Source: Lentimonas sp. (lineage in GTDB: Bacteria > Verrucomicrobiota > Verrucomicrobiia > Opitutales > Coraliomargaritaceae). From it: 64,000 nucleotides of DNA. Shown piece after piece: positions 3,866 through 46,608 of the stretch (positions are counted from its first letter, which is position 1; the number at the start of each line of letters is the position of its first letter). Under the pieces are notes generated by a model. The model had not been told where the DNA came from and made no database searches. It was given only the letters and a program-made list of their open reading frames with translations. The translations under genes were made by a program, and so were the position numbers. The stretch spans positions 241 through 64,240 of the forward strand of contig JBLHTV010000001.1 of assembly GCA_047627755.1 (NCBI GenBank). The letters are read 5' to 3'.

Positions 3866-5035
3866 TTATTTTTTGATATAGGTTTTTCCAGTCTCCCATT
3901 CCTCTGAGACTTCCATGAGTATTGCAGTAACGAGCCTGAGAATCGAGTCTGTATTTGGAAAAAGTCCAGCAACCTTTGTTCGGCGTTTGATCTGAGTGTT
4001 GAGAGTCTCACATGCATTTGAGGTGCGCAGCCGTTTCCTCTTATGCTCCGGTAGATTGAAGATTTCAAGTCCCTCTGGAATAGCACTTTGCATCCAAGCA
4101 CTTAGCTCAGGTGCGCTCTTACTGTATTTTTCAACAATAGAATCAAGTTGCTCTTCTGCATGCGCGAGATCGGGGGCATTGAAGACTGTGCGTATGTCGG
4201 CACCGACAGCTTCGCGCATGTCGACTTTTGGCACATAAGCCTGTGCATTTTGCTGAAGATGGAACTGACAGCGTTGCCATGGTGTGGCATTGAAAACCGC
4301 TCTGAGAGCAGCTTTGATGCCTTCGTGTGCATCTGAGGTGATTGACTCGGGAATACCTATCCCTCGTTCTTTCAATGACACTAAAAAGGTGCGCCAATGC
4401 ACTTCGGCGTCAGAAAGTGCGGCAGATACGCCTAGGATCATACGCTTACCGTCGTCGCGTCGGACTCCGATTGCGGTGAAGACTGCGCAGTCTCGCACTG
4501 AACCTCCGATACGAACTTTAATGTAGGTCGCATCTATGATCATGTGAGCAATGGGCGGCAAGGGACGTTTGCGCCAGAGTTCAAAGGTTCCGTCGAGTTC
4601 AGCGGTCAATCTAGAGACTTGAGCGGAGCTCACTTCGAGTCCACATAGCTTCTCCATGACTTTGGTCACACGCCTGGTTGAGACGCCTTGCAAATACATC
4701 TCAGCGATGGCGACTTTGAGTGATCGATCCGAGCGCGAACCAGTCTCCAGCATGGACGGGCGATAGGGTTCGTCGGCGTCACGAGTTTGAGGAACGCGCA
4801 ATTTGAGCGGCCCCACGGCACTATGGAAGCTCCTGTTCTTGAATCCATTAGCATAGCCGTTGCGGCCTTCGCTACGTTCATATGGGTCAGTGCGAAGATG
4901 GCTGCTACGCTCAATGAGCATCGCTGCGTTCATTAGCATCTCAGCGATCTGAGGTAAGCCCTCGGAAAGGCCGTGTTCGAGAAGAAGATTGATTGGATCT
5001 TCTGTGTGAGTATCTTGTTTGTGGTGTCTGGTCAT
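3866..5035 (-). CDS. IS256 (Mutator) DDE transposase
   Basis: EMYLQGVSTRRV, DATYIKVR, SDAHEGI, WQRCQFH and RTSNACETLN motifs. Likely start MTRHH (5035). Confidence 0.95.
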   Translation of the reverse strand: MTRHHKQDTHTEDPINLLLEHGLSEGLPQIAEMLMNAAMLIERSSHLRTDPYERSEGRNGYANGFKNRSFHSAVGPLKLRVPQTRDADEPYRPSMLETGSRSDRSLKVAIAEMYLQGVSTRRVTKVMEKLCGLEVSSAQVSRLTAELDGTFELWRKRPLPPIAHMIIDATYIKVRIGGSVRDCAVFTAIGVRRDDGKRMILGVSAALSDAEVHWRTFLVSLKERGIGIPESITSDAHEGIKAALRAVFNATPWQRCQFHLQQNAQAYVPKVDMREAVGADIRTVFNAPDLAHAEEQLDSIVEKYSKSAPELSAWMQSAIPEGLEIFNLPEHKRKRLRTSNACETLNTQIKRRTKVAGLFPNTDSILRLVTAILMEVSEEWETGKTYIKK

Positions 5036-5117
5036 TGTTGGTGCTGTGTTTGGATTAAGCACCCTCAGCTTCCAGCTGTGGCCAGACGCCTTCAACCCCT
5101 GATATAGCATAACGGCC

Positions 5118-5166
5118 TCCGGCCCTTCGGGGGATTCCGCTACGCTCCATCCCCCGAAGGGCCGGA
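5118..5166. repeat. Perfect 18-bp stem-loop upstream of the IS256 transposase
   Basis: TCCGGCCCTTCGGGGGAT, 13-nt loop TCCGCTACGCTCC, ATCCCCCGAAGGGCCGGA. Confidence 0.9.
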
Positions 5167-5319
5167 ACCGACGTCTCGCCTAGGCTCGACTGAATTTACA
5201 GACAATTTGTTGCACCGCCAAACGTGTTGTCGCGGAACTGCCAAATTTCAGAACCTGTTTGCTTAGGCCGCAACATCCCGCTCTACCTCCCTAGAATACC
5301 ACAGTAAAGCAAACCTGCC

Positions 5320-5339
5320 TATCACGTGATCACGTGATA
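5320..5339. repeat. Perfect 20-bp palindrome, possible operator
   Basis: TATCACGTGATCACGTGATA is its own reverse complement. Function is unknown. Confidence 0.7.
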
Positions 5340-5397
5340 AGCATATCCTTCTACATATGTCGGAGGGGCGTGAATATTCCTAGAAAAACGTATATCA

Positions 5398-6779
5398 GGG
5401 AACTTCTGAAAACCTACCCCCGATCAGCTATCGCTGACTCAGGAGCAGGCTTTCAGTTTTTAGCTAAATTTCTTCAAAAAAACATCAGCACCAACAACTC
5501 AAATCTTTACTTCGTTAGTCAAAGTATTACTCTTTCATTATGAGATATCACGACCCCAAAAAAGAGAATGATTTGTTCAGCATGATCGAGCACCAGCAGT
5601 CAGTTCATGCTGAGGTAAAGGGAATCAACAAGCTCAATGAGGTGATCGACTGGGAGCTTTTTCGTGACGAATTGGAGTCGATACTGGGCTACGATAAACG
5701 CGACCCAAAGCGTGGCGGACGCCCTCCATTTGATGCCGTTCTAATGTTGCAGGTTCTGGTATTGCAGAAGTATTACGGTCTGAGCGATGAGGAGACAGTT
5801 CCGAGGAACGTAGTGACGACAACAGCGAAGCGTTCATTTCAGGTCATGGATCGCTTTAGCTTCCTGCAGTTCTTAGGTCTACAGGCAGGCGACAATGTGC
5901 CAGATGCGCGAACGATTTGGGACTTTAAGCAGCTACTAGAGAAGGATGATCGCGACGGGACGCGCCGTCTTTTTGAGCAATTTGGTAAGTTGCTTAGCTC
6001 CGAAGGATTATTGGCGAAAGAAGGCAGCATTGTGGACGCGAGCTTCGTAGCAGCCCCCCGTCAGCGTAACAGCCGCGAAGAGAATCAAGATATCAAAGAT
6101 GGTAAACGCCCTGCGGGCTTTGAATCAGATACGCCGAAAGGGCGTCAGAAAGATTGCGATGCACGTTGGACGAAGAAGAATAATGAGACGCACTACGGCT
6201 ATAAAAACCACGCCAAAGTGGATGCGAAAAGCAAGCTCGTGGATGGCTACACTACGACCGCTGCAAGTGTGCATGACAGTCAGGTTTTCAAGGACTTAAT
6301 TAACGATGAAGACGAAGCAGTCTTTGCTGATAGTCCTATGCTTCAGAGGATCATGACGATTTTCTGCTCTCGAAGGACTGCCAAAACTTTATCATGTTTA
6401 AGGGCAGTCGAGGGCATCCGCTCAGTGAAGAAGAGCAAGTAACCAACAAGCTCAGGAGTCGAATACGAGTGCGATGCGAACATGTCTTCGGTCGAATGAG
6501 CCAAATGGCTATGGACCGATTGCGAAGCATCGGTCTAAAGCGGGCTCATCAACACAACGGATTCTGTAACCTAGTTTACAATATGGATCGCTATGCCTTC
6601 TTATGTAGATGATAGGCGATCTGGGCCGCCAGAACGGCCAGATCTCGCCAATTAACCCCAAATTACGCCGAAAAAACCACTTCCCAGCAACCAACATCGC
6701 TCTCTCAAACCACCATTAAAACTGAAAAGCGGCTTTTGAGTCGCCTCCGGCGACCAAAAGGCGTTTTTCAGAAGTCCCC
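5398..6779 (+). mobile_element. IS5-family insertion sequence (defective)
   Basis: TIRs GGGAACTTCTGAAAA / TTTTCAGAAGTCCCC (14/15 match). 4-bp target duplication ATCA at 5394-5397 and 6780-6783. Confidence 0.92.
5540..6612 (+). pseudogene. IS5-family transposase, frameshifted
   Basis: GGRPPFD, LSDE, VPDARTIW, IVDASF, DARWTKK and YGYKNH motifs. One base is missing at ~6335 (GAT AGT -CC TAT GCT, expected DSAY). The C-terminus (RVRCEHVFG) is in another frame, ending at 6612. Confidence 0.9.
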
Positions 6780-6784
6780 ATCAC

Positions 6785-6943
6785 TTGGACTTATCAAACT
6801 GTTGCAAAACCTCAGACTCTCACGACTGTTTTTTTCGCAGAATGATTTCTCACTGAGGACTCGACTCAATTTTTCATAAGTCGTTGGCAAGAAGAACAGA
6901 TGCTAAAGTTGAACCCCGCACGGGTAGATTTTCAGAAGTCCCC
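6785..6943. mobile_element. Orphan IS5-type end, possible MITE or IS remnant
   Basis: 6921-6943 reverse-complements to GGGGACTTCTGAAAATCTACCCG, close to the IS5 left end GGGAACTTCTGAAAACCTACCCC. A degenerate partner GGACTTATCAAA lies at 6787. Confidence 0.5.
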
Positions 6944-8464
6944 TTAAAGTGCCTTCTCGATTTCACTCCAATAACGAGAGTCTTTCAGAAACTCGGACAT
7001 GCGGTCAAAGTCTTCGGATGTTTCGGCGTCGACTTTTAAGCGTTCTATGAGGCTGCTCAGTGTTTCCTCTGAATCCAGTGTTTGCATGCCCTCTTCCTCA
7101 TGGTCGACGATATTTGAATAGGCATTACCACTAAAGCGAACACGCTTATGATTGATTGGCTTCTGGTATTTCCAAAGCCCCATACCTGAGCCATCCCATG
7201 TGCCTTGGTAGATCTGTGCTTCACCTTTAGTGTAGAACAGGTTGTCACGCACTTCGACCGATTCTGCAAAGCGACCAGCTTCCCATGGTGTATCAACCAT
7301 TAGCTGATAGTGCTCTTCAATCGTGTTATAGACGATATTTTGGTAGATCTTTACGCCGCTGACAGGTCCATTTAGAACGAAACCACGCAGATGATCGTTC
7401 AAACTGATGTTGTGGCGAATTACGGTATTTTTGTTGCCGATGGACTGTCCCGAGTCTTGGTGTTTCGACCAATCACAGATAAGGAAAAAGCCACCGGCGT
7501 TGTCCGCACTCAAGTTGTATTCAAACACGGTGCCATCACAATTGAAGTCAGAGTCGAGTCCCTGCCCATCAAAGGTGCCGGCATAGCCCCAGACCTCATT
7601 GAAACGGATTTGCGTGTTGAGGCTGCTCCACGGCCAAATGCCGATACTGGGCCCTGCATGCTGCGTGACCTCTTTTGTGTCTAAATCGGCAATGCGCTGT
7701 CGGGCACCATAAAGACGATTGTATTCGACCACGGCGTGCTCTGTGCCAATGGGCACGATGCCATCCCCTCCGATATCTTCGAGTAAGTTGCCTCGTATTA
7801 CCACATTTGTGCTGAGGTGCGACAAATCATCCCATGGATCCATCCAACCTTTAATCGCATCGCGATCACAGCGAAGGATATGGCAGTCTTCAATCAATAA
7901 ACCATCAATCTTAGTTGGCACCTTTCGTGTATCGACCTCCCAGCGGATGCCTGTGCCGCCTCCTTTGTCCTTTGAAAACACACCGTTGACATCACGCACT
8001 AACGAATTTCGCAAAGTAATATCCTGAACCAAACCTGCATTTTTAGCGAACACCAGTAATCCGGCTCGCTTCGCTTCGCGCTGAGCCCCCGTGTTGGTGA
8101 TCTCAATCCCATCAATCACCCAGTGTGACAGATTCTCAAGAAAGACCGCCGAACGCGTCACTCCCCCACCTGCGATGACCGGCTTCGGGCCATCGAAATA
8201 GCTCGTCAGTGTAATCGGCAGCCCCTGCGCGCCTGATGTGCTCGGCTTAAACTGCCCCTGAAACACCTGCCCACTTCGCAGGTGAATGGTATCCCCAGGC
8301 TCGAATTGCTGCTGATTGGCAGCAGCAAGACTCGACCATGCTGTTTTAGGGCAGAGACCCACCAAAGCATCATCGCCATGCAGGGCATCAATATAATAGT
8401 CTGCCGCAGAAAGCACAGAACAAGACAGCCAACTTAGACCGAAAGCGAATGAGAGTAACTTCAT
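6944..8464 (-). CDS. Secreted right-handed parallel beta-helix protein, putative polysaccharide-active enzyme
   Basis: Signal peptide MKLLSFAFG...LSA; YYID..GDD....W..L.......PGDTI.L N-terminus; repeated V.I..N..... coils; acidic motifs DIGGDG and DGQGLDSD. Confidence 0.8.
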   Translation of the reverse strand: MKLLSFAFGLSWLSCSVLSAADYYIDALHGDDALVGLCPKTAWSSLAAANQQQFEPGDTIHLRSGQVFQGQFKPSTSGAQGLPITLTSYFDGPKPVIAGGGVTRSAVFLENLSHWVIDGIEITNTGAQREAKRAGLLVFAKNAGLVQDITLRNSLVRDVNGVFSKDKGGGTGIRWEVDTRKVPTKIDGLLIEDCHILRCDRDAIKGWMDPWDDLSHLSTNVVIRGNLLEDIGGDGIVPIGTEHAVVEYNRLYGARQRIADLDTKEVTQHAGPSIGIWPWSSLNTQIRFNEVWGYAGTFDGQGLDSDFNCDGTVFEYNLSADNAGGFFLICDWSKHQDSGQSIGNKNTVIRHNISLNDHLRGFVLNGPVSGVKIYQNIVYNTIEEHYQLMVDTPWEAGRFAESVEVRDNLFYTKGEAQIYQGTWDGSGMGLWKYQKPINHKRVRFSGNAYSNIVDHEEEGMQTLDSEETLSSLIERLKVDAETSEDFDRMSEFLKDSRYWSEIEKAL

Positions 8465-8480
8465 ATTAGTTATGTAAATG

Positions 8481-9572
8481 CTAGCGTTGCACACGACCAG
8501 AGGCATTGCCTCGCATCAAGGTTTCCACTTCTTCACGTGAATTATAATTAAAATCTCCTTTGATCGAATGCGCGAGACAAGATGCTGCCACGGCGAAATC
8601 AACCTGCTCTTGAGGCGTCGCAAAGTCAGCCGTCGTCATGGCATAGATCAACCCCGCAGCAAAGGAATCGCCCCCACCGACACGATCAACGATGTTACGC
8701 ATCTTGTAGGATTGATACGTGGCACCGTTCATCGGCGCAAACGCGGCTACATCGCTGGCAACATCGAAGAGCATCGCACCCCAATTGTTATGCGTCGCAG
8801 AAATACTCTCGCGCAAGGTGATCGCCACCTTTTCCACCTTATCGAAGCGTTGCGCGATTTGACGCGCCACGTCGGGATACTGCGCGATTTCCAAGCTGCC
8901 GGCATGCACATCGGTATCGCCCGCATGAATGTCGAGCACATCCGCAGCATCTTCTTCATTGCCAATGATGACGTTCACATTCTCCAGAAACTCCGGCATG
9001 ATGCCGCGGGCTAAGCTGCGCGCATCGGTGCCCGGGCGCCAACGCCATAAGTTCTTACGGAAATTCAAATCACAGGACACCTTCACGCCCGCAGCCTGTG
9101 CCTTATCGGCAGCGAGCACCGCCGCACGTGCAGCAGTTTCTGAAATCGCGAGTGTAATGCCCGAAATATGCAGCCACTGTGCATCGGCAAAGATTGCATC
9201 CCAATCATACTCCTCACCGGGGCACAGTGAAACCGCACTGTAGTCGCGGTCATAGATCACGCGACTCGGGCGCTGATTGGCCCCCGTCTCTACGTAATAA
9301 ACCCCGAAACGACCTTCTTCGCGCCGCAACACATGATCGACATCGACATTGAAGCCGCGCATTTGACGCACAAACGCATCCGCGACCGCATGCTCGGGCA
9401 ACGCGCTGACAAAGCGCGAACTGCCACCGAGCATCGAAACCGATGCGGCCACACTACTCTCAGCGCCACCGAAGGTTAGATCCATCGATCCGGGACAGAC
9501 TTGTGCAAAACGATAATTCTCACTGGGCGCGAGGCGCACCATAACTTCTCCAAACGTAACTACTTTTTTCAT
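8481..9572 (-). CDS. kdgK: 2-keto-3-deoxy-sugar-acid kinase (PfkB family, KdgK/DauC-like)
   Basis: VVTFGEVMVRL, DLNFRKNLW and DRVGGGDSFAAG motifs. AGGAG RBS precedes ATG 9572. Confidence 0.9.
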   Translation of the reverse strand: MKKVVTFGEVMVRLAPSENYRFAQVCPGSMDLTFGGAESSVAASVSMLGGSSRFVSALPEHAVADAFVRQMRGFNVDVDHVLRREEGRFGVYYVETGANQRPSRVIYDRDYSAVSLCPGEEYDWDAIFADAQWLHISGITLAISETAARAAVLAADKAQAAGVKVSCDLNFRKNLWRWRPGTDARSLARGIMPEFLENVNVIIGNEEDAADVLDIHAGDTDVHAGSLEIAQYPDVARQIAQRFDKVEKVAITLRESISATHNNWGAMLFDVASDVAAFAPMNGATYQSYKMRNIVDRVGGGDSFAAGLIYAMTTADFATPQEQVDFAVAASCLAHSIKGDFNYNSREEVETLMRGNASGRVQR

Positions 9573-9591
9573 ATAAATCTCCTGTATCAAA

Positions 9592-10236
9592 TTATGAACG
9601 ACTCATGACGGCGGTCGCACGCTGGGTAATGCCTGCCCAATCGCCTTCTCTGATCGCACTAGCGCTCGCGATCCACGAACCACCGACGGCGAGAATTATA
9701 TCTTCCTTTAAATAATCTTCTGCATTGTCAGCAGTGAGCCCACCCAGCGGGATGAACTGCAAGCCCAGATGCGCATACGGAGCCTGCATATTTTTGAGAT
9801 ACGCGAGTCCTCCCATCGGTTCCGCAGGGAATAGCTTCAATATATCGCAACCAAACTCCAGCGCATGTTCAATCTCACTGGGAGTCGCAATGCCAGGAGC
9901 AAACGGTAGCTGAGCATCCAGAGCCGCCTGCACAACGCGTGCGTTCATCCCCGGCGCAACTGCACAACTCGCACCAGCGTCTTGCACCTGTCGCACTTGA
10001 GTTGGTGTAATCACAGTGCCAGCCATCACTAGCATCTCGCTATAGTTCTCGGCGATAACCTGCATCACCTGCAGCGCAGCCGGAGTGCGCATGGTGATTT
10101 CAACCGCTTTAATACTACCGGCAAGAAGCGCTTCAGCCAGAGGCTTGGCATCGTCAACATTTTCCACGGTCACCGTGGCAATCGCGCGTGACGCAGCAAG
10201 TTGCGCACGCATTCGTGGTGTAAATAAAGTCTTCAT
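9592..10236 (-). CDS. eda: KDPG/KDPGal/KHG aldolase (Eda/DauD-like)
   Basis: EITMRT, PGIATPSE, KLFPA, IPLGG and VGGSW motifs. Confidence 0.92.
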   Translation of the reverse strand: MKTLFTPRMRAQLAASRAIATVTVENVDDAKPLAEALLAGSIKAVEITMRTPAALQVMQVIAENYSEMLVMAGTVITPTQVRQVQDAGASCAVAPGMNARVVQAALDAQLPFAPGIATPSEIEHALEFGCDILKLFPAEPMGGLAYLKNMQAPYAHLGLQFIPLGGLTADNAEDYLKEDIILAVGGSWIASASAIREGDWAGITQRATAVMSRS

Positions 10237-10248
10237 TTTATTGTTCTA

Positions 10249-11424
10249 TTATTCGACCACCGCAAAGCTGGACTCGTCTTTAGCATTAGGATCGATGACA
10301 AACGGCTGCATCGCCACTTCATTCACTTCGACGCCAAGGCCCGGTAGTTCATTAAAATGTAGCTTTCCATCAATCACTTCATGGGCCGCCGAAAAGATCG
10401 AATCACGCACCGAATGCTCGGTTTGGTCCATCTCCAGCATGACTAGACGACGCTCAAAGCGACCGGGATTCTCCGGCACCATACTGATCGCGGATGCGGC
10501 CACTGCTTGATTGATTTTTAACCCCCAGCAATGCGGCACCATGTCCGTATGCGATGCACTCGCGATTGCATTGATTTTCACAAACTCCGTAATACCACCA
10601 CAGTAAGCGATATCGGGCTGCATAATATCTAAACAAGCGCCGCTTGATAAGCGCTCAAACCCATAGCGAGTCTGCTCACATTCCCCCGCCGCAATTGGCA
10701 CACTCAGTTGTTCACGCAGCCGAGCCATATCACGGTAGTTCTCCGGAGAGAGTGGTTCTTCAAACCAGCAATAGTCATTCGCCTCTAACACACGACCTAT
10801 GCGAATCGCCTCTTTATAATTGTAGGCATGATTGGAGTCCGCTCCGATCTGTGTCGTTGGGAAACGACTACGAAAGGCTTCGATCAGCTTGGTATCGAAC
10901 TCTATGTTTTTACCGATCTTGACCTTCAGCATCGTGTAGCCTTGCGCAACATAACCAGCAGCCTCTTCGAGCAACTCTTCGAGCATTTCGTCCTCTGGCT
11001 TGTCGTCGCGAAAATACATACCCGTCGCGTAACAAGGCACAGGCTCATCCGAACCACCTAACAAGGTGCGGACAGGTGTATTCAAGGCTTTGCCCTTGAG
11101 ATCCCAGAATGCTATATCCAGACCTGAAATGGCAGCCATGAAGATACCATGACGATTAAAGTCGCAAAACGCCTTCCACATCAGGTTCCACAGCACTTCG
11201 TTTTGCAGCGGATTCTTACCCAATAGTAATGGCTTAAAGTGGTGCTCTACAGCCGCAGCAATTGCTAGGTTCGGCCCATAGCATTCGCCCCATCCTACAG
11301 TTCCATCACTGCAGGTCACTTTGAGGACGAAGTTGCTCTTCACCGGATAATACCACTGCGAAAAGCCGATGGATCGGCTCAACTTAGTGCGCAATGGAAA
11401 ACATTGAATATCGACGATTTTCAT
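10249..11424 (-). CDS. Mandelate racemase/enolase-superfamily enzyme, probable 3,6-anhydrogalactonate cycloisomerase (DauB-like)
   Basis: GWGECYG, KVKIG, DSNHAY, WFEEP, AAGE, QPD and PHCWG motifs. The specific function is inferred from context and from recalled similarity (FSQWxY N-terminus). Confidence 0.8.
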   Translation of the reverse strand: MKIVDIQCFPLRTKLSRSIGFSQWYYPVKSNFVLKVTCSDGTVGWGECYGPNLAIAAAVEHHFKPLLLGKNPLQNEVLWNLMWKAFCDFNRHGIFMAAISGLDIAFWDLKGKALNTPVRTLLGGSDEPVPCYATGMYFRDDKPEDEMLEELLEEAAGYVAQGYTMLKVKIGKNIEFDTKLIEAFRSRFPTTQIGADSNHAYNYKEAIRIGRVLEANDYCWFEEPLSPENYRDMARLREQLSVPIAAGECEQTRYGFERLSSGACLDIMQPDIAYCGGITEFVKINAIASASHTDMVPHCWGLKINQAVAASAISMVPENPGRFERRLVMLEMDQTEHSVRDSIFSAAHEVIDGKLHFNELPGLGVEVNEVAMQPFVIDPNAKDESSFAVVE

Positions 11425-11443: not shown

Positions 11444-12856
11444 TTAACGCTTAATCGAGATGCGTTTGATATCGTAGTAATCCTCGAGTGCGAGACGGCT
11501 CACGTCCTTACCGTAGCCGCTTTGCTTGAGCCCACCATGCGGCAATTGCAGCGAATAGTAGGCTTCGTTAATGAGGATATTGCCGAAGATCAGACGCTTC
11601 TCGGCCTCGAGTGCACGAGAGAGGTTTTGGGTATAGACGTAGGCGGACAATCCATACTCGGTATCATTCGCCAAGGCGAAGGCATCGTCGCTGTCATCAA
11701 ACGGCATGACAGGCATGATCGGCCCGAAAATTTCTTCACAGGTCAAAGCACTGTCGCGTGCGACGTCTTTAATCAAAGTCGGCTGCATGAAATACCCGGG
11801 GCGACTCGCGCGTTTGCCACCAGTAACCACTGTGCCCTTATGCGTCTCTGGTTGGCAGAACTTGACCATCTGCTCCACGCTCGCCTCTGACACGACCGGA
11901 CTCAGCTCAGGCCCGGCGCCCGAGTCGCCGACATAACGATACGACTCCATCAGCGCCTTCGCCTTCTCGATGAAAGCCGCATAAATGCTGCGGTGCACAA
12001 AGACACGATTCGGTGCGACACAGATCTGTCCGGCATTGGCCAACTTCAGGCCAACAATGTCAGCCACTGCGGCATCCAGATCCGCATCTTCAAAGACCAG
12101 CACGGGTGCATCGCCACCGAGCTCCAGAGACAGTCGCTTCACTGTCGTCGGTGATTGCTCTATCAGTTTCTTGCCGGCAAAAGTCGATCCTATCATGGTC
12201 AGTAGACGTGGGATTGGGCTTTGCGCCAAGGCATCGCTGACGAGCTTACCACGACCACAGAGTAAATTCACGGTGCCCTTTGGAAATGCGACTTCATTGA
12301 TTAATTCAGCCACTCGCATCGAAGCCATCGGTGTCTTATCGGATATTTTAAACACCGAGGCACAGCCACTCGCCAATGCAGGGCCTAGCTTATAGCCCAG
12401 ATTTAGCAGAGGGAAGTTCCATGTCAGTAAGCCAGCGACGACACCAATGGGTTGATACGAAAGAAAGTTCAGATGCCCGCCGTCATAGTCCGGAATGGTT
12501 TCTCCGTAGTGGCGCTTCACTTCCTCGATGTAGTAGCCGAGGCAGTCAACCAGCATATTAAAATCGTAGCTTGCGACATCCTGTGTTTTGCCAGTCTCTT
12601 GAATCAGTAGATCAACGATATTCGCCTCGTCCGCCTTCAGATTGACAATCAGCTCATCGACCAATGCTTTACGCTCATTGATCGAGAGTTGACCATATGC
12701 TTCCGAGGCGATCTTCGCCACATCAAGTGCACGATTCACATCTTCAGTCGTCGCGCTCGCAACTTGTCCAATTTTTGCCGCAGTCGCAGGATTATACACA
12801 TCCAGATGTGCGTCACTATCGACGAATTCGTTTCCTATGTAATTCTTTATATTCAT
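11444..12856 (-). CDS. NAD(P)-dependent aldehyde dehydrogenase, probable 3,6-anhydro-D-galactose dehydrogenase (DauA-like)
   Basis: WNFPLLNL, TMIGST, LELGG, AGQICVAPNR and EEIFGP motifs. First gene of the four-gene cluster. Confidence 0.8.
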   Translation of the reverse strand: MNIKNYIGNEFVDSDAHLDVYNPATAAKIGQVASATTEDVNRALDVAKIASEAYGQLSINERKALVDELIVNLKADEANIVDLLIQETGKTQDVASYDFNMLVDCLGYYIEEVKRHYGETIPDYDGGHLNFLSYQPIGVVAGLLTWNFPLLNLGYKLGPALASGCASVFKISDKTPMASMRVAELINEVAFPKGTVNLLCGRGKLVSDALAQSPIPRLLTMIGSTFAGKKLIEQSPTTVKRLSLELGGDAPVLVFEDADLDAAVADIVGLKLANAGQICVAPNRVFVHRSIYAAFIEKAKALMESYRYVGDSGAGPELSPVVSEASVEQMVKFCQPETHKGTVVTGGKRASRPGYFMQPTLIKDVARDSALTCEEIFGPIMPVMPFDDSDDAFALANDTEYGLSAYVYTQNLSRALEAEKRLIFGNILINEAYYSLQLPHGGLKQSGYGKDVSRLALEDYYDIKRISIKR

Positions 12857-12976: not shown

Positions 12977-14704
12977 CTATTTATTGTTCTTATGCTTGTG
13001 ATACTCTTGCCATGTGAGCATGCCGTCTTTGTTAACGTCGGCCTCAGGGTTTTTCTTGAAATATTGGTTCTTCCATTTTTCGTCATTACTAGAGGAATCC
13101 TTCTTCACGGGCTTAGCGGTTGCTGGTTTTGCTGTGTTTTCCAAACGCGCATCGAGATGCTTACGAAATGATGCGAGCTTCACTGCATACTCGGGGTTGC
13201 TTGCCAGATTCTCCCATTCGTTCTTGTCGATTCGATGATCGTAAAGTTCTTCGTCGCCAGTGTGATACCGAATATAGCGCCAGTCCTGCGTGCGTAGCGA
13301 ATAGTTCTGCATCATGGGGTCCGGAGCTTTCCACTTGTGAACCGCAGTGAGTGCTGCCTCAGGCCCACCCCAATCGTTCAACTTTGGATTTTCAAGAAAC
13401 GATACCAGGCTCGTGCCATCCAGTGGAGCGCCTTTCTCATTACGACGTGTATCACCGCTCAGACCGCAGAGCTCGATCAATGTCGGATACAGGTCTACCA
13501 ACGAAGCTGGATGCATTACGTTTGCACCAGCTTGTGCCACGCCTGGAGCGCGAATAATAAACGGCACGCGTGTGCTCTCTTCCCAAAGTGAATTCTTATA
13601 GACGTAATCCTTCGGACCGGTGCCCCAACCATGGTCACTGGTAAGCACGATGATCGTGTTATCTTTTAGCGATGAATTATCGACGACATCCAAAATCATA
13701 CCGAGCAACTCATCCACAGATGCGACACAGGCCAAATACGCTTGTGTAAAATGCTTCAGCGCCAACTCTTGGTCACCGCCGTAGGAAGCGACCAGACTTT
13801 CAAAGATCTTCACACCGCGATCATTGCCACCACGCGATTTAGTCAAATACGTGTCATCGGCATCTCCGTTAAGAATCGGAGGCAGCTCCAAAGTATCCAC
13901 AGGAAACTGATCGAAGAAGCGCTGCGGAACAATCAAAGGTGTGTGCGGGCGCATGAAGCCCACTCCCATGAAAAAAGGTTTCTTCTCATCACCGGCAGAA
14001 TAAGCCTGCAATGTCTCAGCAGCCCATTGCGCATTAGCCTCATCTGCGGTCAAGTCACGCTCTCCGGATTTGGGGAATGCCAAGTCAAAGCTATTTCTCC
14101 AATTACCGCGCTGCCATGTATAGGACTTCCCGTCCCCAAAGTCTTTGCCTTCCAAAGAGACGAATGGGCCGAACGAACCGTCAATTTTACCGAAGTCATC
14201 ACGCAGCGGCACAGGTGTCATCGGGTGCGGCACTTGCTTATTGCCATCAAAAGCATAGGGTCCGTAGTCCGCTTCTTCACGAAATTCGTCCCAATCCTGA
14301 TGCGCATGATGATGCATCAATTTACCTGTTCCAATGGTGCGATACCCATTGGCTTGGAAGTGCGCGAACATTGTCTTTGAATTCGCCAATACCTCATTTT
14401 GATTCCAGTTATCCATACCAAAATTATTTGAAGTATGTGGATAGATTCCGGTGAAGAAGCTAGATCGTGACGGTGCACAGATCGGGATCGTGCAATGCAT
14501 TTGCTGGAAAGTCACACCACTATCCATGAGCCGCGTCATGTTGGGCGTCTGAGTTTGTGGATGGCCTCCAAAGCCTTCGATGTCGGTATTCAGATCATCA
14601 CAGACGATCAAAATTACATTCGGTTTGGTAGCCTGTAGACACACTGCCGCACAGAGTGCGACCAGTCCCAAGCAGAGAGAACGGAGTATTGATGACATAT
14701 TCAT
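12977..14704 (-). CDS. S1 sulfatase (iduronate-2-sulfatase-like, probably S1_7) with EF-hand-like tail
   Basis: Signal peptide; DDLN, CAPSR, GKLMH, RPHTP and SDHG motifs; tail DVNKDGMLTWQE. Confidence 0.92.
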   Translation of the reverse strand: MNMSSILRSLCLGLVALCAAVCLQATKPNVILIVCDDLNTDIEGFGGHPQTQTPNMTRLMDSGVTFQQMHCTIPICAPSRSSFFTGIYPHTSNNFGMDNWNQNEVLANSKTMFAHFQANGYRTIGTGKLMHHHAHQDWDEFREEADYGPYAFDGNKQVPHPMTPVPLRDDFGKIDGSFGPFVSLEGKDFGDGKSYTWQRGNWRNSFDLAFPKSGERDLTADEANAQWAAETLQAYSAGDEKKPFFMGVGFMRPHTPLIVPQRFFDQFPVDTLELPPILNGDADDTYLTKSRGGNDRGVKIFESLVASYGGDQELALKHFTQAYLACVASVDELLGMILDVVDNSSLKDNTIIVLTSDHGWGTGPKDYVYKNSLWEESTRVPFIIRAPGVAQAGANVMHPASLVDLYPTLIELCGLSGDTRRNEKGAPLDGTSLVSFLENPKLNDWGGPEAALTAVHKWKAPDPMMQNYSLRTQDWRYIRYHTGDEELYDHRIDKNEWENLASNPEYAVKLASFRKHLDARLENTAKPATAKPVKKDSSSNDEKWKNQYFKKNPEADVNKDGMLTWQEYHKHKNNK

Positions 14705-14712
14705 TATTAAAA

Positions 14713-17571
14713 TTATCGCATGTCTTTCACGATCAAATAGATTGGGGTTTCAGTAAATGGGATCCGAACAACGCCATTTTCAGGAGTTAATTCGAAAGGA
14801 TTTCCGTAAAGGTCGCGGCCAGCCACGATTGAGTCGGTCTGTAGCTCACGCGCCTGCTCTGCGCCTTCACTCCACAAGACGACAAAGTCAAACTCTGGAC
14901 CGCTAAAGCGTGTCTGCCAGCATCCATCGCCAAGGTCATCCTGACCGTCACACTCGACATCATACATGATATCACAAGCCGCAGCAGCTGCGATGAATCC
15001 AGATTCGACGGTGCGCCCCCCTGGGCCGACCCAGCCCTGTAGCCAACGATCCAGCAGGTCGCCCTCTAGCAGGATAAAGTAGAAGGACTTTTCGACTCCG
15101 TTAGCAAATGCCGTAGAGACCGCTTGTATATACGCCGATGCACACTCCTCCTCGTTAAGTATCTCGCGAGCAACAAATGGATTTTTATAAGGCACAAAAG
15201 GCTTCGCATCCTCTGCCAAACTGAAGTAGCCAAACTCGGTTGCCCAAAATGACGGGGCTTCGCCAAATTCAGACACCGCCTCGTCAAACCCCTGCACCAC
15301 TTCACGGAAATCTCCACGTGCTGGATGGCGACGCCCTTCGGTGTAAGGGTGGTATGAAATCGCATCGAACGGTTCCAAGCCGGTGTGTCCGAGTAACTCC
15401 TTCAGGAAATGATTATGAGTCTCAGCTGGCGTGGCTAGTCCCAGACCCACGACTTCGATATTGGGGTCTTTCGCCTTAATGAGCTCATAGGCATGCGTCG
15501 TAAAGTCGGCCATTTCTTTAACCGTGCCACGATAGAACAGTGGGATGTCCGGCTCATTCCATGTTTCAATGGCATGCAAGCGGCCATCCGCTAAGTCAAT
15601 CAAACGGTTCAAATAGTCATCAAACTCAGCTTGCACATCATCACGATGCGTGTAGGCACGCGAGGCAGACGAACCGACTGGCGCACGCGAAGCCCATTTC
15701 GGCATGCCGGGCCCGATGACCGCCAGCGGCGTCACTCCAAAAGATGCTTGATAATCGAGCACGGCATCCAGCTTTGCGGCCTGTCTTTCATTCCAGACGC
15801 CTTTCTTAGTCATCAAACTCCCAAGCCCACAATCAAAGGCAAAACGCGACCACCCAAGGCCAATGCGCTCCATCGCCCAAAACTCGCGTAGGTCGCTGAT
15901 ATTTGTTCCAAAGCGAATGGAAGGATCAACTTGCTTACTTGTGCGAGCACGCACCACAGCGAGCGAGATGCGATGTAAGTCTTCGCCAACTGAGACTACA
16001 ACACGATACATTCCCTGAAGCACAAAGCCTGGCGTCTCCCAAGCAATTATTGCATTCGACTGTGCGGCGATCTCACCAACACCCCGCTCACTCTCAAATA
16101 CCACATTACCATGCGTATCAAGGATACTAATACGTGCAGGGGGCGAGATTGTGACATCCGAGTTATTACGAATCACTGTGACTACATCAAAGGCTTCGTT
16201 TGGTTCATAGACGCGATGATAACGCACCGTATCGGAATTAGACTCAATCACTCGCTGCGGCTTGTAATCGGCATTACCTTTGGGTGTCACGGCCACGGCA
16301 TCCAAATAGACTTCCACTGCATCCGGTGTGGGTGGAATGGCAACTGCGATGGCATAGGCGTTTTTCGCAGCTAAAGGCAGACGCACATCGAAGGAATAGC
16401 GGGCCCAATCTTGAGTAAGTGTCACAGTCTTTTCAATCAAGTTGCTACCACGGTTTGGCACCAAGGCCGTCGGCACGTAGCGCACCTGTAGCTTCACTTT
16501 CTGCCCTGGCGCACTTGCCTTCATGTCCGCCGAAACGGTCAATCGATCCAAGGCATGAGCCTCAAAATAGTCCGAAGCAATCGTAGCGTGCTTTGCCACT
16601 GGTTCAAACGCCGTGTTTTGAGGCACCAACGACACTCTCAAACTCTGTTGCCCATGCGAGGCGGCATCCTCAGTAAGATCCCATCCGGAACTGACGTCAG
16701 TTTTATTAAAAATCACACCCCACTCTTCACGGCCCAACTCAAAGCTACTGTTATTTAGAATGTTCTGTGTCACAGGGTCCGAGTCCAGAGAGGAGCCATC
16801 TGTGTCGGATACGGGTAAGAGTAAATCGTAAACGATATGTTGCCCATCAACAGCATAGAGATTCACCCAAATCGAGCGATGCCCTTTCCAGTCGACAGCA
16901 TTAAGCACTTCAATCTCCAACTCCCTCTGCGGCAACAGCACGAAACCATCATCAGAATCACTCAGTGAACTAAATGACTGAAACGGCTGACGCTTGAGTA
17001 GCACCGACCGATGCTTTTGTGATGTCGAATAATTAAAGCGCTCTCCATCCACCTCGAAGGCCTGTTCGTCATAGAAACCAATCGGCAGGTTAAGCGTCTC
17101 ACGCTCGGCACTGTAGCCTGTTGCCGAAAAATCCAAATCAAAGCGTAAGGCGCGCTCATCAGTGATCGTGGTTGCCACTTTCAAGTGGCCCGCCGCGCCC
17201 TTGATTTTGATCGGTTCATTGAAAACCAATGCGTCCGCATGCACTTGATATCGAACCTCCCATGGAAGTAGATTTGAATGTTGAGAACCGTTCGGAGCTT
17301 TAATGGTAAAACTGCTGCCTTCAATGAGCACACCACTGGTCGATACCAGATACATCGTATTACCGTCTGGTTTCGCCTGATAGTGTAGATCGTCCCACTG
17401 AATCGACGCATCTTCGTGAACTATCGGTGTAGTCGAAGGTCTGCAGTCTGTAGCGCCTTCGTTCTGCCCAGGGGCAATTGTCGGGGCCGATGGCACGCAA
17501 GCGACACTGAAAGCAGACAGCACGAGCGCACAAGACAAGCGACATTGTAAGGATTTGGATATAGAAGACAT
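14713..17571 (-). CDS. Multidomain clan GH-A-like glycoside hydrolase lipoprotein (GH39/GH5-like) with CBM-like domain
   Basis: Lipobox-like FSVAC; NILNNSSFE...LTQDWARY...YLDAV beta-sandwich; TIM-barrel motifs ETWNEPD, ISYHPY and WATEFG. Confidence 0.7.
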   Translation of the reverse strand: MSSISKSLQCRLSCALVLSAFSVACVPSAPTIAPGQNEGATDCRPSTTPIVHEDASIQWDDLHYQAKPDGNTMYLVSTSGVLIEGSSFTIKAPNGSQHSNLLPWEVRYQVHADALVFNEPIKIKGAAGHLKVATTITDERALRFDLDFSATGYSAERETLNLPIGFYDEQAFEVDGERFNYSTSQKHRSVLLKRQPFQSFSSLSDSDDGFVLLPQRELEIEVLNAVDWKGHRSIWVNLYAVDGQHIVYDLLLPVSDTDGSSLDSDPVTQNILNNSSFELGREEWGVIFNKTDVSSGWDLTEDAASHGQQSLRVSLVPQNTAFEPVAKHATIASDYFEAHALDRLTVSADMKASAPGQKVKLQVRYVPTALVPNRGSNLIEKTVTLTQDWARYSFDVRLPLAAKNAYAIAVAIPPTPDAVEVYLDAVAVTPKGNADYKPQRVIESNSDTVRYHRVYEPNEAFDVVTVIRNNSDVTISPPARISILDTHGNVVFESERGVGEIAAQSNAIIAWETPGFVLQGMYRVVVSVGEDLHRISLAVVRARTSKQVDPSIRFGTNISDLREFWAMERIGLGWSRFAFDCGLGSLMTKKGVWNERQAAKLDAVLDYQASFGVTPLAVIGPGMPKWASRAPVGSSASRAYTHRDDVQAEFDDYLNRLIDLADGRLHAIETWNEPDIPLFYRGTVKEMADFTTHAYELIKAKDPNIEVVGLGLATPAETHNHFLKELLGHTGLEPFDAISYHPYTEGRRHPARGDFREVVQGFDEAVSEFGEAPSFWATEFGYFSLAEDAKPFVPYKNPFVAREILNEEECASAYIQAVSTAFANGVEKSFYFILLEGDLLDRWLQGWVGPGGRTVESGFIAAAAACDIMYDVECDGQDDLGDGCWQTRFSGPEFDFVVLWSEGAEQARELQTDSIVAGRDLYGNPFELTPENGVVRIPFTETPIYLIVKDMR

Positions 17572-17805
17572 GAATGCAGCAATCAACAGGGGTCGAGAGA
17601 TAACGATGTGGTTATTTAAACAGTATCCTCACCTTTCCGCGTTCGCGAAATGGTAATATACATTCGCAGCACGCCAATCTACCCAATAAAACAAAATAAT
17701 GTGAATTTTATATATCGGCTGCCTGAATGAGATCGAGACCGCCAGCCGGACAAGTACATGCTCAACAAAACTTAAGCCCTACAATTCCTACCACAGTTCG
17801 CCTCC

Positions 17806-17847: not shown

Positions 17848-17908
17848 GCAAAGGCATACGTCATGTAATATACTAATGACAAAAGACACCTCACCCAACT
17901 GTTATTCA

Positions 17909-18619
17909 ATGCGCACATCCAAGCCGACTCAGTCCCCTAGGGGGTTTACACTTATCGAACTCCTGACAGTCATCGCCATTATTGCGATCTTGGCTGGGAT
18001 CCTCATTCCCGCGATAGGCAAGGTGCGCAAAAAGGCCGCTACAGTTAAGGCCGTCAACAATGTCCGCCAAATCGGCATGGCCAACTCACTCTATTCGCAA
18101 GAAAACAATGGTAAGATCATCGGGCAAGAGGAAGGAAAGTTCATGAATGCGATGCAGAACATCGCCGAATACATCTCCACGGAAAAAGAGCTCAATTGGG
18201 ATCAACAAATCGCCACACTAGCCCTAACGAATGACCCTAATGTGCCGGAAAATATGATCAGAATAGGAGGCCTCCCCTTCACGTATGCGATCAATTCTGT
18301 ATTCAACCAGAAATATGGACGCTCGGTCGATGGCAAAGCAGCATGGAAGCCAGCCGCGCAACAAAGCTCTAACCAACGACGCATGGCAGAGTTCGATTAT
18401 CCTTCGGACACGATCTATGCCGTCAGTGGCAGTTATCAATTAACGGTATCCGCAGCGGCAAACGCTTCGCTCCTTCAGGAACCAAGCGCTCGACAGTCAA
18501 TTTTCTATTTACACGGCAACAATGATAGCACACCAGCAGTCTTCTTAGACGGCCATAGCGAGCTAATCACCTATCCGATCGATCCTAAGCAGATCAATCC
18601 ACGGGAACGCACGAAGTAG
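17909..18619 (+). CDS. Prepilin-type N-terminal cleavage/methylation protein with C-terminal H-X9-DG-type motif (DUF1559-like)
   Basis: G|[29 protein letters not shown] and [15 protein letters not shown]. Alternative start at 17876. Confidence 0.9.
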
Positions 18620-44550: not shown

Positions 44551-46608
44551 TCAAACCGCGTCGACACATACATAACTCGCATACGGCTCTAGTTCCATAC
44601 AGCCTTCGAGCACCTCTCCACTTGCCCATTCACGCAAGCGGAGTTGTTTCAAATCAAAAGTTTGTGACGTGCGTGTATAATTAAATAAAAAGGTCAGTGT
44701 GCCCTGACTTGATTGACGCTGACGTAGCACAACACCTTCCGGCAATCCTACCTGCGTAGACAATGCATGCGACTCTAACAAGGATGCGTAAAATTCACTT
44801 AAACTAGCATCGGCCAATTTCGCACCCAAATAATATGCGCTGCCTTCACCGCTGCGATTCGATGTAATGACAGGTGATCCTTTATAAAACTCAGACCCCG
44901 TCCGTGCAAGCACATCAGCCGACTCCACATGTAAGACTTCTATCACATCTGATGCCACGCCTGGATACGGTTTGCCCGAATTATGCACGAGCAGAACCTC
45001 AGTCTCGTCGTGTAAATAGTCCACTTCCTCGTTCCAGATGCCAAAGGTCTCCCGCAAGCCCGCGCCGGGGAAGCCGCCAAGGTGGCAGCGATTCATCTCG
45101 TCCACATAGCCGGTCAAATAACTACCAACCAGGATTCCACCCTGATCAACAAAAGCCTGCAGGCGCGCACCGAGTGCATCGGACACCAGATACAGCGCGG
45201 GTATCACAAGCACCTTATAGTCGGCAAACTCAGACTGAGCCGATAGCACATCCACCGATTGCCCAGCCACCGTCAACGCACGGTAATGCGCTTGGCAGGC
45301 TTCGGTATAAATATCTGACGGATACGGATGCACCTCTTTTGCTTTCTTCGGCCCACAGGATGCATTGAGCGCCCAACGACTCTCCCAATCATACACGATT
45401 GCAATGCATGCTTGTGGTATATCCTGCTGACACAGTGATTCGAGCGACGATAGCTCATAACCGACCGCAGCGCACTCTTGATACACGCGCCCCTGATCAC
45501 TACCTTCATGGTCGACCACTGCACCATGATATTTTTCAAAACCACCGCGCCCCTTGCGCCACTGGAAATAATGAATGGTATCGGCACCATTGGCGACCGC
45601 CTGTAGCACCTCTTGCCGATGCACGCCCGGACGCTTCAATTTATTGATCTGCCCCCAGTTCACCGAACTCGGCGAGCACTCCAATAACATCCACGGCTTA
45701 CCACCGCTCATGCCGCGCATCATACTATGAATGAAATCAGAAGCAATAGATTGCTTCCACGTGTGCTCCCGATCATCTGGCATCGGATATAAATCATTCG
45801 AGATCACATCCAGATGCTCCGACCATTGCCAATAATTCGTGCCCTCGTGCGTGCCCATATAGTTAGTGGTGCATGGCACATTCGGCGTTAACTCACGCAG
45901 CGGCTTCATCTCGTTTAGAATGAAAGAGACATGCTGGTCATTGGTAAATCGCAACCAGTCCAACCCCAGTCCATCGATACTCTCATCAAAAGTCGGCACT
46001 TGGCTCCAGTCTGTAAAGGTATGATTCCAGAAGCTCGCCCACCAAGCCTCGTTCAGTGCTGTAAGTGTTTGGTATTTTTCTTTCAACCACGCCTGAAAGC
46101 CCGCTCGGCAAGTAGCACAATGACACTCGCCACTAAATTCGTTCCCCACATGCCACAGCGCCAGTGCAGGATGATCTTTATAGCGCTCAGCCAAGGCTCG
46201 GTTCATTTGCGCGGCCTTCGCACGATACACCGGCGAACTCATGCAGTGATTATGGCGGCCACCGGATCGATCACGCATGCCATCCTGATTCACACGACGC
46301 ACCTCCGGATATTTCTCCGACAGCCACATCGGCTTACTACCACTCGGCGTGGCCAAGAACACGAACATACCTTCCTCGGCAAACCGATCCATCACCCGAT
46401 CTAACCATTCAAAAGTATAGCGCCCCTCTTCCGGTTCCAGTGCTGTCCATCCAAAGATACCCACAGAGGCAGAGGTCACGCCCGCCTGTTTCATCAGCTC
46501 GATATCACGCTCTAGGACCTCCGGTGAATGCTGCCATTGGTCCGGATTATAATCTGCCCCATAAAAGAGTTTCGTTTGCTTGGGAATGCCTACCTTGGGT
46601 GTGATCAT
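44551..46608 (-). CDS. GH42 beta-galactosidase, cytoplasmic
   Basis: YGADYNPDQW, WHVGNE, Cys cluster CHCATC, MLLECSP, YFQWR and EKYHG motifs. No signal peptide. Confidence 0.95.
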   Translation of the reverse strand: MITPKVGIPKQTKLFYGADYNPDQWQHSPEVLERDIELMKQAGVTSASVGIFGWTALEPEEGRYTFEWLDRVMDRFAEEGMFVFLATPSGSKPMWLSEKYPEVRRVNQDGMRDRSGGRHNHCMSSPVYRAKAAQMNRALAERYKDHPALALWHVGNEFSGECHCATCRAGFQAWLKEKYQTLTALNEAWWASFWNHTFTDWSQVPTFDESIDGLGLDWLRFTNDQHVSFILNEMKPLRELTPNVPCTTNYMGTHEGTNYWQWSEHLDVISNDLYPMPDDREHTWKQSIASDFIHSMMRGMSGGKPWMLLECSPSSVNWGQINKLKRPGVHRQEVLQAVANGADTIHYFQWRKGRGGFEKYHGAVVDHEGSDQGRVYQECAAVGYELSSLESLCQQDIPQACIAIVYDWESRWALNASCGPKKAKEVHPYPSDIYTEACQAHYRALTVAGQSVDVLSAQSEFADYKVLVIPALYLVSDALGARLQAFVDQGGILVGSYLTGYVDEMNRCHLGGFPGAGLRETFGIWNEEVDYLHDETEVLLVHNSGKPYPGVASDVIEVLHVESADVLARTGSEFYKGSPVITSNRSGEGSAYYLGAKLADASLSEFYASLLESHALSTQVGLPEGVVLRQRQSSQGTLTFLFNYTRTSQTFDLKQLRLREWASGEVLEGCMELEPYASYVCVDAV

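Follow-up and report, generated by a model that had tools for sequence, protein, structure and literature searches.

A distant homologue of GH136 lacto-N-biosidases in a putative anhydrogalactose operon of marine Opitutales

The 64,000-nucleotide stretch of Lentimonas sp. analysed here, hereafter called the window (GenBank assembly GCA_047627755.1, contig JBLHTV010000001.1, positions 241 to 64,240; Verrucomicrobiota, Opitutales, Coraliomargaritaceae), carries on its minus strand a gene for an exported protein with the right-handed beta-helix fold, which stands last in a presumed anhydrogalactose (dau) operon. We confirmed this gene at 6944-8464, with a product of 506 amino acids (aa) counted from the ATG at 8464; the longest version of the open reading frame (ORF) extends from 6944 to 8506 and would encode 520 aa. 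The start at 8464 is the likelier one, because a typical signal peptide opens there (MKLLSFAFGLSWLSCSVLSA, followed by ADYY), as in the orthologues from four related genomes, which also have a hydrophobic leader and start at the equivalent point, whereas the start at 8506 overlaps the kinase gene lying upstream. The stop codon of this kinase (TAG, 8481-8483) precedes the beta-helix ATG by 16 nucleotides (nt), a spacer with no room for a promoter or a terminator, and so the two genes are read as co-transcribed. That the ORF is a genuine gene and not a chance ORF follows from its more than 1000 homologues, its match to Beta_helix (the sole domain found by Pfam) and the confident AlphaFold2 model of its product (mean pLDDT 94.1, pTM 0.92), in which coils of beta-strands run all through the protein before three C-terminal helices. 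The ORF, the leader, the Pfam match and the model agree with the original prediction, made from the DNA letters alone, of a secreted beta-helix protein starting 16 nt past the kinase stop, which had not specified the minus strand. A single copy of the gene is present in the source assembly, which is 55% complete and amounts to 1.47 Mb.

The same prediction had left the protein unclassified, a label that is ruled out by its matches in NCBIfam, phmmer, profile, Foldseek and VIA-align searches, since at the level of sequence, profile and fold all of them return family GH136. The match to the NCBIfam LnbX model has an E value of 2.5e-22, with a score of 78.7 bits that lies far under the equivalog cut-off of 2500 bits, so that the protein is not an LnbX equivalog. 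Searched with phmmer against all PDB sequences, it retrieved five GH136 chains at 1.4e-28 to 3.9e-21 (6kqs at 1.4e-28, 5gqc at 7.9e-26), the remaining matches being an alginate lyase cap at 5e-4 and one at chance level. A profile of 59 family members found the GH136 structures in the PDB at 4.6e-80 to 3.8e-64, the next non-GH136 match following at 1.3e-8. Structure prediction, which had been proposed as a check, yielded a model that superposes best on GH136: these structures occupy ranks 1-6 in Foldseek (E 1e-18 to 1e-20, TM 0.61-0.73), the next beta-helix fold coming at 5e-7, twelve orders of magnitude behind, and VIA-align gives Z scores of 32-33 (best 33.1), with a root-mean-square deviation of about 3 Å over 430-435 aligned residues at 26-27% identity. 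Other beta-helices reach Z scores of 27-31 in VIA-align, with about 100 fewer residues aligned and 11-18% identity; the fold score alone is not discriminating, and the GH136 call rests on sequence evidence.

By that evidence, the protein can be taken as a clear, if distant, homologue of GH136 lacto-N-biosidases, to which it is 22-27% identical. The original prediction had proposed an enzyme releasing the substrate of the pathway, and had named as refuting this proposal a strong match to any characterised family whose substrate is unrelated; formally, such a match has now been obtained, yet at 22-27% identity membership of the family does not fix the substrate. The analogy drawn at the time with the beta-helices of GH82 and GH110 found no support in any special similarity to either family: there was no sequence match to them at E values up to 1, and they are unlisted among the Foldseek and VIA-align matches shown, which in itself is no exclusion. 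Pfam found no GH127 (PF07944) or GH129 (PF11308) domain in the beta-helix protein, and PF22842, a family that the protein database gives for homologues, did not come up in our Pfam scan.

The features that the protein has in common with the family include sequence similarity over the catalytic domain, a right-handed beta-helix superposing on LnbX and the pair of aspartates with a stacking tryptophan. In HMMER alignments, its DGQGLDSD motif corresponds to DGQAWDAD of LnbX and to D568 and D575 of ErLnb136, and D299, D306 and W279 are the counterparts of ErLnb136 D568, D575 and W548, which act as acid/base, as nucleophile and as the residue stacking on galactose at subsite -2, respectively (PMC7335108). 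An alignment of 59 family sequences has D299, D304, D306, W279 and D234 (of GGDG) invariant, and W279 is predicted to form the sugar-stacking platform. The three aspartate motifs pointed out originally were all found (DRDA at residues 200-203, DIGGDG at 230-235 and DGQGLDSD at 299-306), and the idea of Asp-based beta-helix catalysis is supported by the alignment of the last of them with the GH136 aspartates that act as acid/base and as nucleophile. DRDA was ruled out as a catalytic motif: R201 alone is invariant in the 59-sequence alignment, and the GH136 structures read RTSRWG at this place. An LnbY/GH136I helper was found neither fused to the protein nor adjacent to its gene at the locus, in the window and in the four related genomes, no genome-wide search having been made; the protein begins at the beta-helix cap straight after its signal peptide, with no fused helper domain, and the neighbouring genes are dauC upstream and either GH42 or an insertion sequence (IS) downstream, with spacers too short for a further gene.

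Upstream of the beta-helix gene and on the same strand lie genes for a PfkB KDG kinase, a KDPG aldolase, an enolase-superfamily enzyme, an aldehyde dehydrogenase, an S1 sulfatase and a protein of 957 aa (table 1). The best solved structure for the enolase-superfamily enzyme is 5olc, the DauB of Zobellia (E 1.4e-96, about half of the residues identical by eye), against only 3e-37 for the L-isomer enzyme 5xd7, while the dehydrogenase is best matched by 6pnu (1e-106), an entry cited only in the Pseudoalteromonas paper describing the crystal structure of DauA. Because 5olc and 6pnu are the closest structures and 5xd7 is far weaker, the label of anhydrogalactose operon seems reasonable, with the D-isomer favoured. 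The sulfatase has generic S1 matches only (6hhm, 5g2v), without assignment to a subfamily. For the 957-aa protein we found no Pfam match and no PDB sequence match, and only 32 homologues were detected, all from Opitutales and all with at least 52% identity; at its N-terminus it bears large beta domains, and its NEP and TEFG motifs are invariant. The barrel of its model, a part that is moderately confident only, has GH39, GH2 and GH5 as top matches in Foldseek, and the protein is a lineage-restricted glycosidase of clan GH-A, of the beta-type and presumably retaining. Its candidacy as a DagB-like anhydrogalactosidase was rejected on these same matches, 5opq being absent among those shown. Leader peptides are present in the beta-helix protein, the sulfatase and the 957-aa protein, and none is found in the GH42 enzyme or the Dau proteins.

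Table 1. Positions of the beta-helix gene, its motifs and its neighbours in the window.
Feature	Position	Strand	Basis
GH136-type right-handed beta-helix glycosidase gene (predicted function)	6944..8464 (stop codon 6944-6946)	-	ORF, sequence and fold matches
Signal peptide, residues 1-20, predicted cleavage after LSA	8405..8464	-	read from the sequence; hydrophobic leaders of orthologues
DGQGLDSD, predicted catalytic motif (D299 acid/base, D306 nucleophile)	7547..7570	-	alignment to GH136
GIWPW motif, containing W279	7628..7642	-	alignment to ErLnb136 W548
DIGGDG motif (GGDG/GGDxI is GH136-wide)	7760..7777	-	alignment
Spacer between kinase stop and beta-helix start, 16 nt	8465..8480	-	sequence
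dauC-like KDG kinase	8481-9590	-	Pfam, NCBIfam
dauD-like KDPG aldolase	9592-10236	-	Pfam, NCBIfam
dauB-like cycloisomerase	10249-11424	-	Pfam, NCBIfam; PDB 5olc
dauA-like aldehyde dehydrogenase	11444-12856	-	Pfam, NCBIfam; PDB 6pnu
Exported S1 sulfatase, second gene of the conserved operon	12977..14704	-	sequence matches, leader peptide
Exported 957-aa lipoprotein, clan GH-A (GH39-like) glycosidase, first operon gene	14713..17586	-	motifs, Foldseek
Cytoplasmic GH42 beta-galactosidase	44551..46608	-	Pfam E 7e-137, PDB E 6e-191, synteny, no signal peptide
IS256 and IS5 insertion ending the operon right after the beta-helix stop	3866..6943	.	transposase families, IS-end repeat
IS256 transposase	3866-5110		transposase family
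IS5 transposase	5540-6442		transposase family

Of 301 sampled genomes of the phylum, four others from the same family encode orthologues of the beta-helix protein, with 63-65% identity, and all four have the same block comprising the genes for the 957-aa protein, the sulfatase, dauA, dauB, dauD, dauC, the beta-helix protein and GH42; these eight genes are inherited as a unit, the remainder of the locus being variable. A broader scan, covering one genome for each prokaryotic species, turned up 452 relatives, and the context of the best 80 was examined. At identities of at least 56%, dauA-dauB-dauD-dauC lie immediately upstream on the same strand and in the same order in 16/16 loci (spanning 56-81% identity, with dauC strictly adjacent in each), all from marine Opitutales assemblies labelled Puniceicoccaceae, Coraliomargaritaceae or Opitutia; at identities of 49% or less, dau genes are found within 10 kb in 0/64 loci. 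GH42 adjoins the beta-helix gene in 13 of the 16 loci (directly downstream in 12, with one esterase-like gene between in 1), and the 957-aa gene is co-inherited in each locus that is long enough to show it. A maximum-likelihood tree places the Opitutales proteins in a clade with 100% support and a long stem; the dau-linked proteins group inside a clade of 100% support and need one label change only. The proposed tie to the anhydrogalactose genes, for which co-occurrence with dau had been suggested as a check, is thus upheld in the close relatives (16/16, against 0/64 distant ones), and membership of the beta-helix gene in this pathway is well supported. At about 40 positions the dau-linked clade is fixed for a residue that differs from the wider family, and the substitutions clustering near the catalytic loop include R287 (Gln in 62/62 other sequences), W292, E315, R250 and R257. 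Such substitutions are consistent with a remodelled pocket, without indicating for which substrate.

The order of genes in the window departs from this arrangement, for the GH42 orthologue is displaced to a distance of 37 kb from the beta-helix gene. The GH42 gene, the usual partner of the operon, has been split off from it by an IS insertion: next to the beta-helix stop, at 6929-6943, stands a 15-nt IS-end repeat, GGGGACTTCTGAAAA, which occurs again at 6765-6779 and, inverted and with one mismatch, at 5398-5412, the expectation by chance being no copies. Two genomes of the same genus that are 98-99% complete (G150 and G198) are missing both the beta-helix gene and dauB, and so the operon is accessory within the genus, a status that agrees with the IS elements alongside. 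The remainder of the window encodes some 13 sulfatases along with two GH2 enzymes, one GH42, esterases, and proteins of the PEP-CTERM and prepilin types. Pfam scans of all window ORFs of at least 150 aa found no GH127, GH129 or GH16, which bears out for these three families what had been said of their absence; GH82 and GH117 lie outside the models scanned. One prepilin-type N-methyl protein (17876-18619) occupies the position held in another genome with the operon (G009, L011:14543-17644) by a TonB-dependent receptor, which is transcribed divergently from the 957-aa gene.

Beyond the dau-linked clade, a 49%-identical paralogue in a Tara Oceans Opitutae assembly (L035:9974-17153) lies in convergent orientation to a cytoplasmic GH42-like gene of divergent sequence (Pfam E 1.5e-26); two sulfatases come after the paralogue and dau genes are absent, so that the pairing of beta-helix and GH42 also exists outside the anhydrogalactose context. 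At more distant loci of the family, with 36-49% identity (L067, L093, L095, L032 and L044), the homologue is surrounded by successive sulfatase genes in Pelagicoccus mobilis, Novipirellula, Pontiella and one Opitutae assembly, and sits after two SusC/SusD pairs in Parabacteroides goldsteinii. The wider family, at 36-45% identity, is frequent among soil and gut bacteria and within the sulfatase clusters of marine PVC bacteria. As a whole, this GH136-like family of about 500 aa appears uncharacterised.

As to the enzyme that frees anhydrogalactose, GH127 (PF07944) had no match in three genomes that carry the operon and are 99-100% complete (G009, G021 and G072); a further genome (G018) holds the operon plus a GH127, about 100 kb apart. 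GH129 (PF11308) had no match anywhere, a weak negative because the control was silent as well and Zobellia DagB is very divergent from the GH129 model. Among the Verrucomicrobiota of the 301-genome sample that have a dauB-like gene (45-48% identity) and lack the beta-helix, GH127 is present in 3/3. A larger genome of the same family, with no beta-helix, has GH127 at 8 kb from dauB (G141; L099, G141:C11:84000-103999), in a canonical locus that reads GH127 (no signal peptide), major facilitator superfamily transporter, FG-GAP propeller, dauC, dauD, dauA, dauB, GH16 with a carbohydrate-binding module, sulfatase and TonB-dependent receptor; its propeller recalls the unassigned propeller candidates of Pseudoalteromonas carrageenan loci. 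The Opitutales operon looks like a variant, seen in few and related genomes, in which the places of GH16 and GH127 are taken by the 957-aa clan GH-A protein together with the GH136-like protein and GH42. For Pseudoalteromonas, carrageenan loci with neither GH127 nor GH129 have been described as an unsolved matter, with beta-propellers under suspicion (PMC6923384), and in 2024 GH127 and GH129 were the only families employed for the release of anhydrogalactose (PMC10958521).

From this combination of family and context, we give an even chance to the proposal that the beta-helix protein is a periplasmic GH136-type exo-glycosidase trimming desulfated carrageenan-type oligosaccharides and feeding both GH42 and DauABCD. 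It would be an exported, retaining glycoside hydrolase of the GH136 lineage, with D299 as predicted acid/base and D306 as predicted nucleophile, and would act outside the cytoplasm on desulfated oligosaccharides of a galactan containing 3,6-anhydro-D-galactose (carrageenan type), a setting suggested by the conserved operon with its exported GH-A protein, its sulfatase and its dau genes. By analogy with characterised GH136 enzymes, a small unit, probably a disaccharide, would be clipped from such oligosaccharides, then imported and finished by GH42 and DauABCD. Characterised GH136 are outer exo-'biosidases' releasing a beta-galactosyl disaccharide that is imported and split in the cell (PMC7335108), and a periplasmic exo-enzyme is favoured here because the pairing with a cytoplasmic GH42 repeats this layout. 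Homology, fold, conserved catalytic residues, export signal and synteny are established by our data; the context suggests the class of substrate, and the family an exo or 'biosidase' mode of action. Lacto-N-biosidase activity (which frees Gal-beta-1,3-GlcNAc) and a human-milk or mucin glycan as substrate are unlikely, since the host from marine plankton, the dau genes and the sulfatase argue otherwise.

The proposed trimming could take place at either of two bonds. Cleavage of Gal-beta-1,4 would yield beta-neocarrabiose, in a GH167-like role, and would need the least chemical change, because the sugar in subsite -1 would be a 3-O-substituted beta-D-hexopyranoside, as in lacto-N-biose; the stereochemistry of the family favours this bond. 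Cleavage of anhydrogalactose-alpha-1,3 would yield carrabiose or free anhydrogalactose and would leave no gene of the operon idle, as inside the cell carrabiose could be cut by GH42 into galactose and anhydrogalactose, the substrate of DauA; this second bond is favoured by the partnership with a cytoplasmic GH42 and by the missing GH127 matches in the three nearly complete genomes. GH136 chemistry deals with a beta-D bond and proceeds with retention, while the release of anhydrogalactose concerns an alpha-D bond; the flipped chair of the anhydro sugar puts its alpha bond equatorial. We regard it as a tentative possibility, rather doubtful at present, that the GH136-like beta-helix cleaves the 3,6-anhydro-alpha-D-galactosyl-(1,3) bond to give free anhydrogalactose or carrabiose; for parts of this release, the 957-aa clan GH-A protein and GH42 are candidates of equal standing.

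Several points weigh against a carrageenan-trimming role of the beta-helix protein. Release of neocarrabiose leaves GH42 without an obvious substrate and an anhydrogalactosidase still needed, and release of carrabiose demands a change of specificity, from beta-D to alpha-D, of a kind uncommon inside one family. The work on ErLnb136 reported that GH136 activity cannot do without a helper, either subunit or domain (LnbY/GH136I; PMC7335108), and no such helper adjoins our gene. The Dau proteins of the operon are about half identical to the characterised ones, and the 16 dau-linked loci represent one well-conserved arrangement, not 16 independent ones, because they come from one lineage in one bacterial order. 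Moreover, the wider family (36-45% identity) extends to soil Acidobacteriota, Armatimonadota and gut Parabacteroides, hosts that do not meet carrageenan, so that the family as such is silent on red-algal substrates.

One alternative is that the beta-helix is itself the missing exo-alpha-1,3-(3,6-anhydro)-D-galactosidase, which would make it the third such family after GH127 and GH129. The distribution of GH127 described above speaks for it, since this family has no match in G009, G021 and G072 and is present in all three genomes with a dauB-like gene and no beta-helix, that of G141 lying in a GH16/GH127/dau cluster; loci of this kind, with neither GH127 nor GH129, have been documented as unsolved (PMC6923384), and the other two glycosidases of the operon belong to clan GH-A, a clan known for beta-type bonds. 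Yet the silence of GH129 searches counts for little when the control is equally silent and Zobellia DagB is too divergent for PF11308, and G018 possesses GH127 in addition to the operon. All characterised GH136 cleave a beta-D-hexosaminide bond with retention (PMC7335108). The two known families of anhydrogalactosidases stem from families specific for alpha-D or beta-L bonds. Moreover, release of a monosaccharide in the periplasm would leave the conserved cytoplasmic GH42 unaccounted for, and the co-inherited 957-aa protein is an equally good candidate; altogether, we consider this alternative unlikely.

Similarly improbable is that the enzyme attacks another linkage of a mixed sulfated galactan, or another glycan altogether, for instance by releasing beta-1,3-galactobiose or removing side branches, the adjacency to dau then reflecting co-regulation of a locus for several substrates and not a step in supplying anhydrogalactose. 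A beta-galactosyl disaccharide product would suit the GH136 chemistry and the GH42 partner alike, the family is common in sulfatase clusters or polysaccharide utilization loci without dau (Pelagicoccus, Pontiella, Novipirellula, Parabacteroides), its closest paralogues, at 49% identity, stand beside sulfatases and a GH42-like gene with no dau, and the window itself has two GH2, about 13 sulfatases and esterases. What this explanation does not account for is the strict adjacency of dauC in all 16 orthologous loci, with no regulatory space between the genes, and the inheritance of the eight-gene block as a whole while the rest of the locus varies. Much less probable still, to the point of being hardly credible, is a non-hydrolase built on the same scaffold, whether it be a lyase for polysaccharides, an epimerase or a protein that binds only. 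The structural scores of GH136 (Z 33) are indeed approached by those of alginate epimerases, PL6 lyases and tailspikes (Z 27-31), and an N-terminal stretch has a weak alginate lyase match; these fold matches are nevertheless about 100 residues shorter, at 11-18% identity, strong sequence E values are obtained for GH136 only, both GH136 catalytic aspartates are invariant, and galactans of carrageenan type have, by established chemistry, no uronic acid on which a lyase could act.

To our knowledge, GH136 has one activity only, that of lacto-N-biosidase on human-milk and mucin glycans in gut bacteria. In the literature, we found no paper tying the family functionally to carrageenan or to Verrucomicrobiota, the co-mentions being lists of carbohydrate-active enzymes. 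What appears new here, as judged from sequences and gene order, is a well-separated GH136-type clade, without the usual helper at its locus, that is fixed in an anhydrogalactose (carrageenan-type) operon; its hosts are planktonic Opitutales with small genomes that come from North Sea, Mediterranean, station ALOHA and Tara samples. Provided that the link is a functional one, the substrate range of GH136 would widen to a possible second substrate, of seaweed type, and there would be a concrete candidate for the unfilled steps in carrageenan loci without GH127 and GH129. It would also suggest that Verrucomicrobiota of open waters consume anhydrogalactose galactans with the 957-aa GH-A protein, the GH136-like protein and GH42, a set of enzymes that would differ from the GH16/GH127 set of Bacteroidota. 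Should cleavage at the alpha-1,3 bond prove true, the protein would represent a third, structurally unrelated family liberating anhydrogalactose and, within GH136, the first member to act on a substrate that is alpha-D and not a hexosaminide; the substrate supply of dau-positive bacteria without a GH127 or GH129 match would then be explained. A possible use of such an enzyme would be in making defined carrageenan oligosaccharides or anhydrogalactose.

The reference systems of GH136 are LnbX of Bifidobacterium longum (5gqc), ErLnb136 of Eubacterium ramulus (6kqs/6kqt), TnX (7v6m) and BsaX (7v6i). Our protein has in common with them the right-handed beta-helix with its N-terminal cap motif, GGDG, GIWPW, the D-x4-D-x-D loop and the extracytoplasmic location, as well as, in its predicted role, the combination of an outer exo-enzyme with an intracellular enzyme splitting a beta-galactoside. 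It differs from them in its low identity (22-27%), the lack of an adjacent helper, the approximately 40 clade-specific substitutions, the host, which is a marine verrucomicrobium instead of a gut bacterium, and the neighbouring genes, which are dau genes, a sulfatase and GH42 in place of a galacto-N-biose/lacto-N-biose transporter and GH112. With GH82 iota-carrageenases and GH110 alpha-1,3-galactosidases, the latter operating in lambda-carrageenan loci (PMC12549532), it shares the general right-handed beta-helix and carboxylate catalysis, whereas its motifs are of the GH136 type and not those of GH82 or GH110. The exo-alpha-1,3-(3,6-anhydro)-D-galactosidases of Zobellia galactanivorans, DagA of GH127 and the GH129-like DagB (PMC5698469), resemble it in their position beside dauABCD in a locus of carrageenan type, as does the GH127 that lies beside dau in G141; in sequence and fold they are unrelated to the beta-helix, GH127 folding as an (alpha/alpha)6 barrel and DagB as a TIM barrel, and both have other catalytic residues and another ancestral anomeric specificity. 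GH167 has a fold unrelated to the beta-helix, being a GH42-like (alpha/beta)8 barrel of clan GH-A; it is an exo-enzyme of the membrane or periplasm that takes a disaccharide from desulfated carrageenan oligosaccharides, and its locus has dau without GH127 or GH129. Of the functional roles considered, we judge that of GH167 to be the one most compatible with GH136 chemistry, the likeness lying in the proposed role only.

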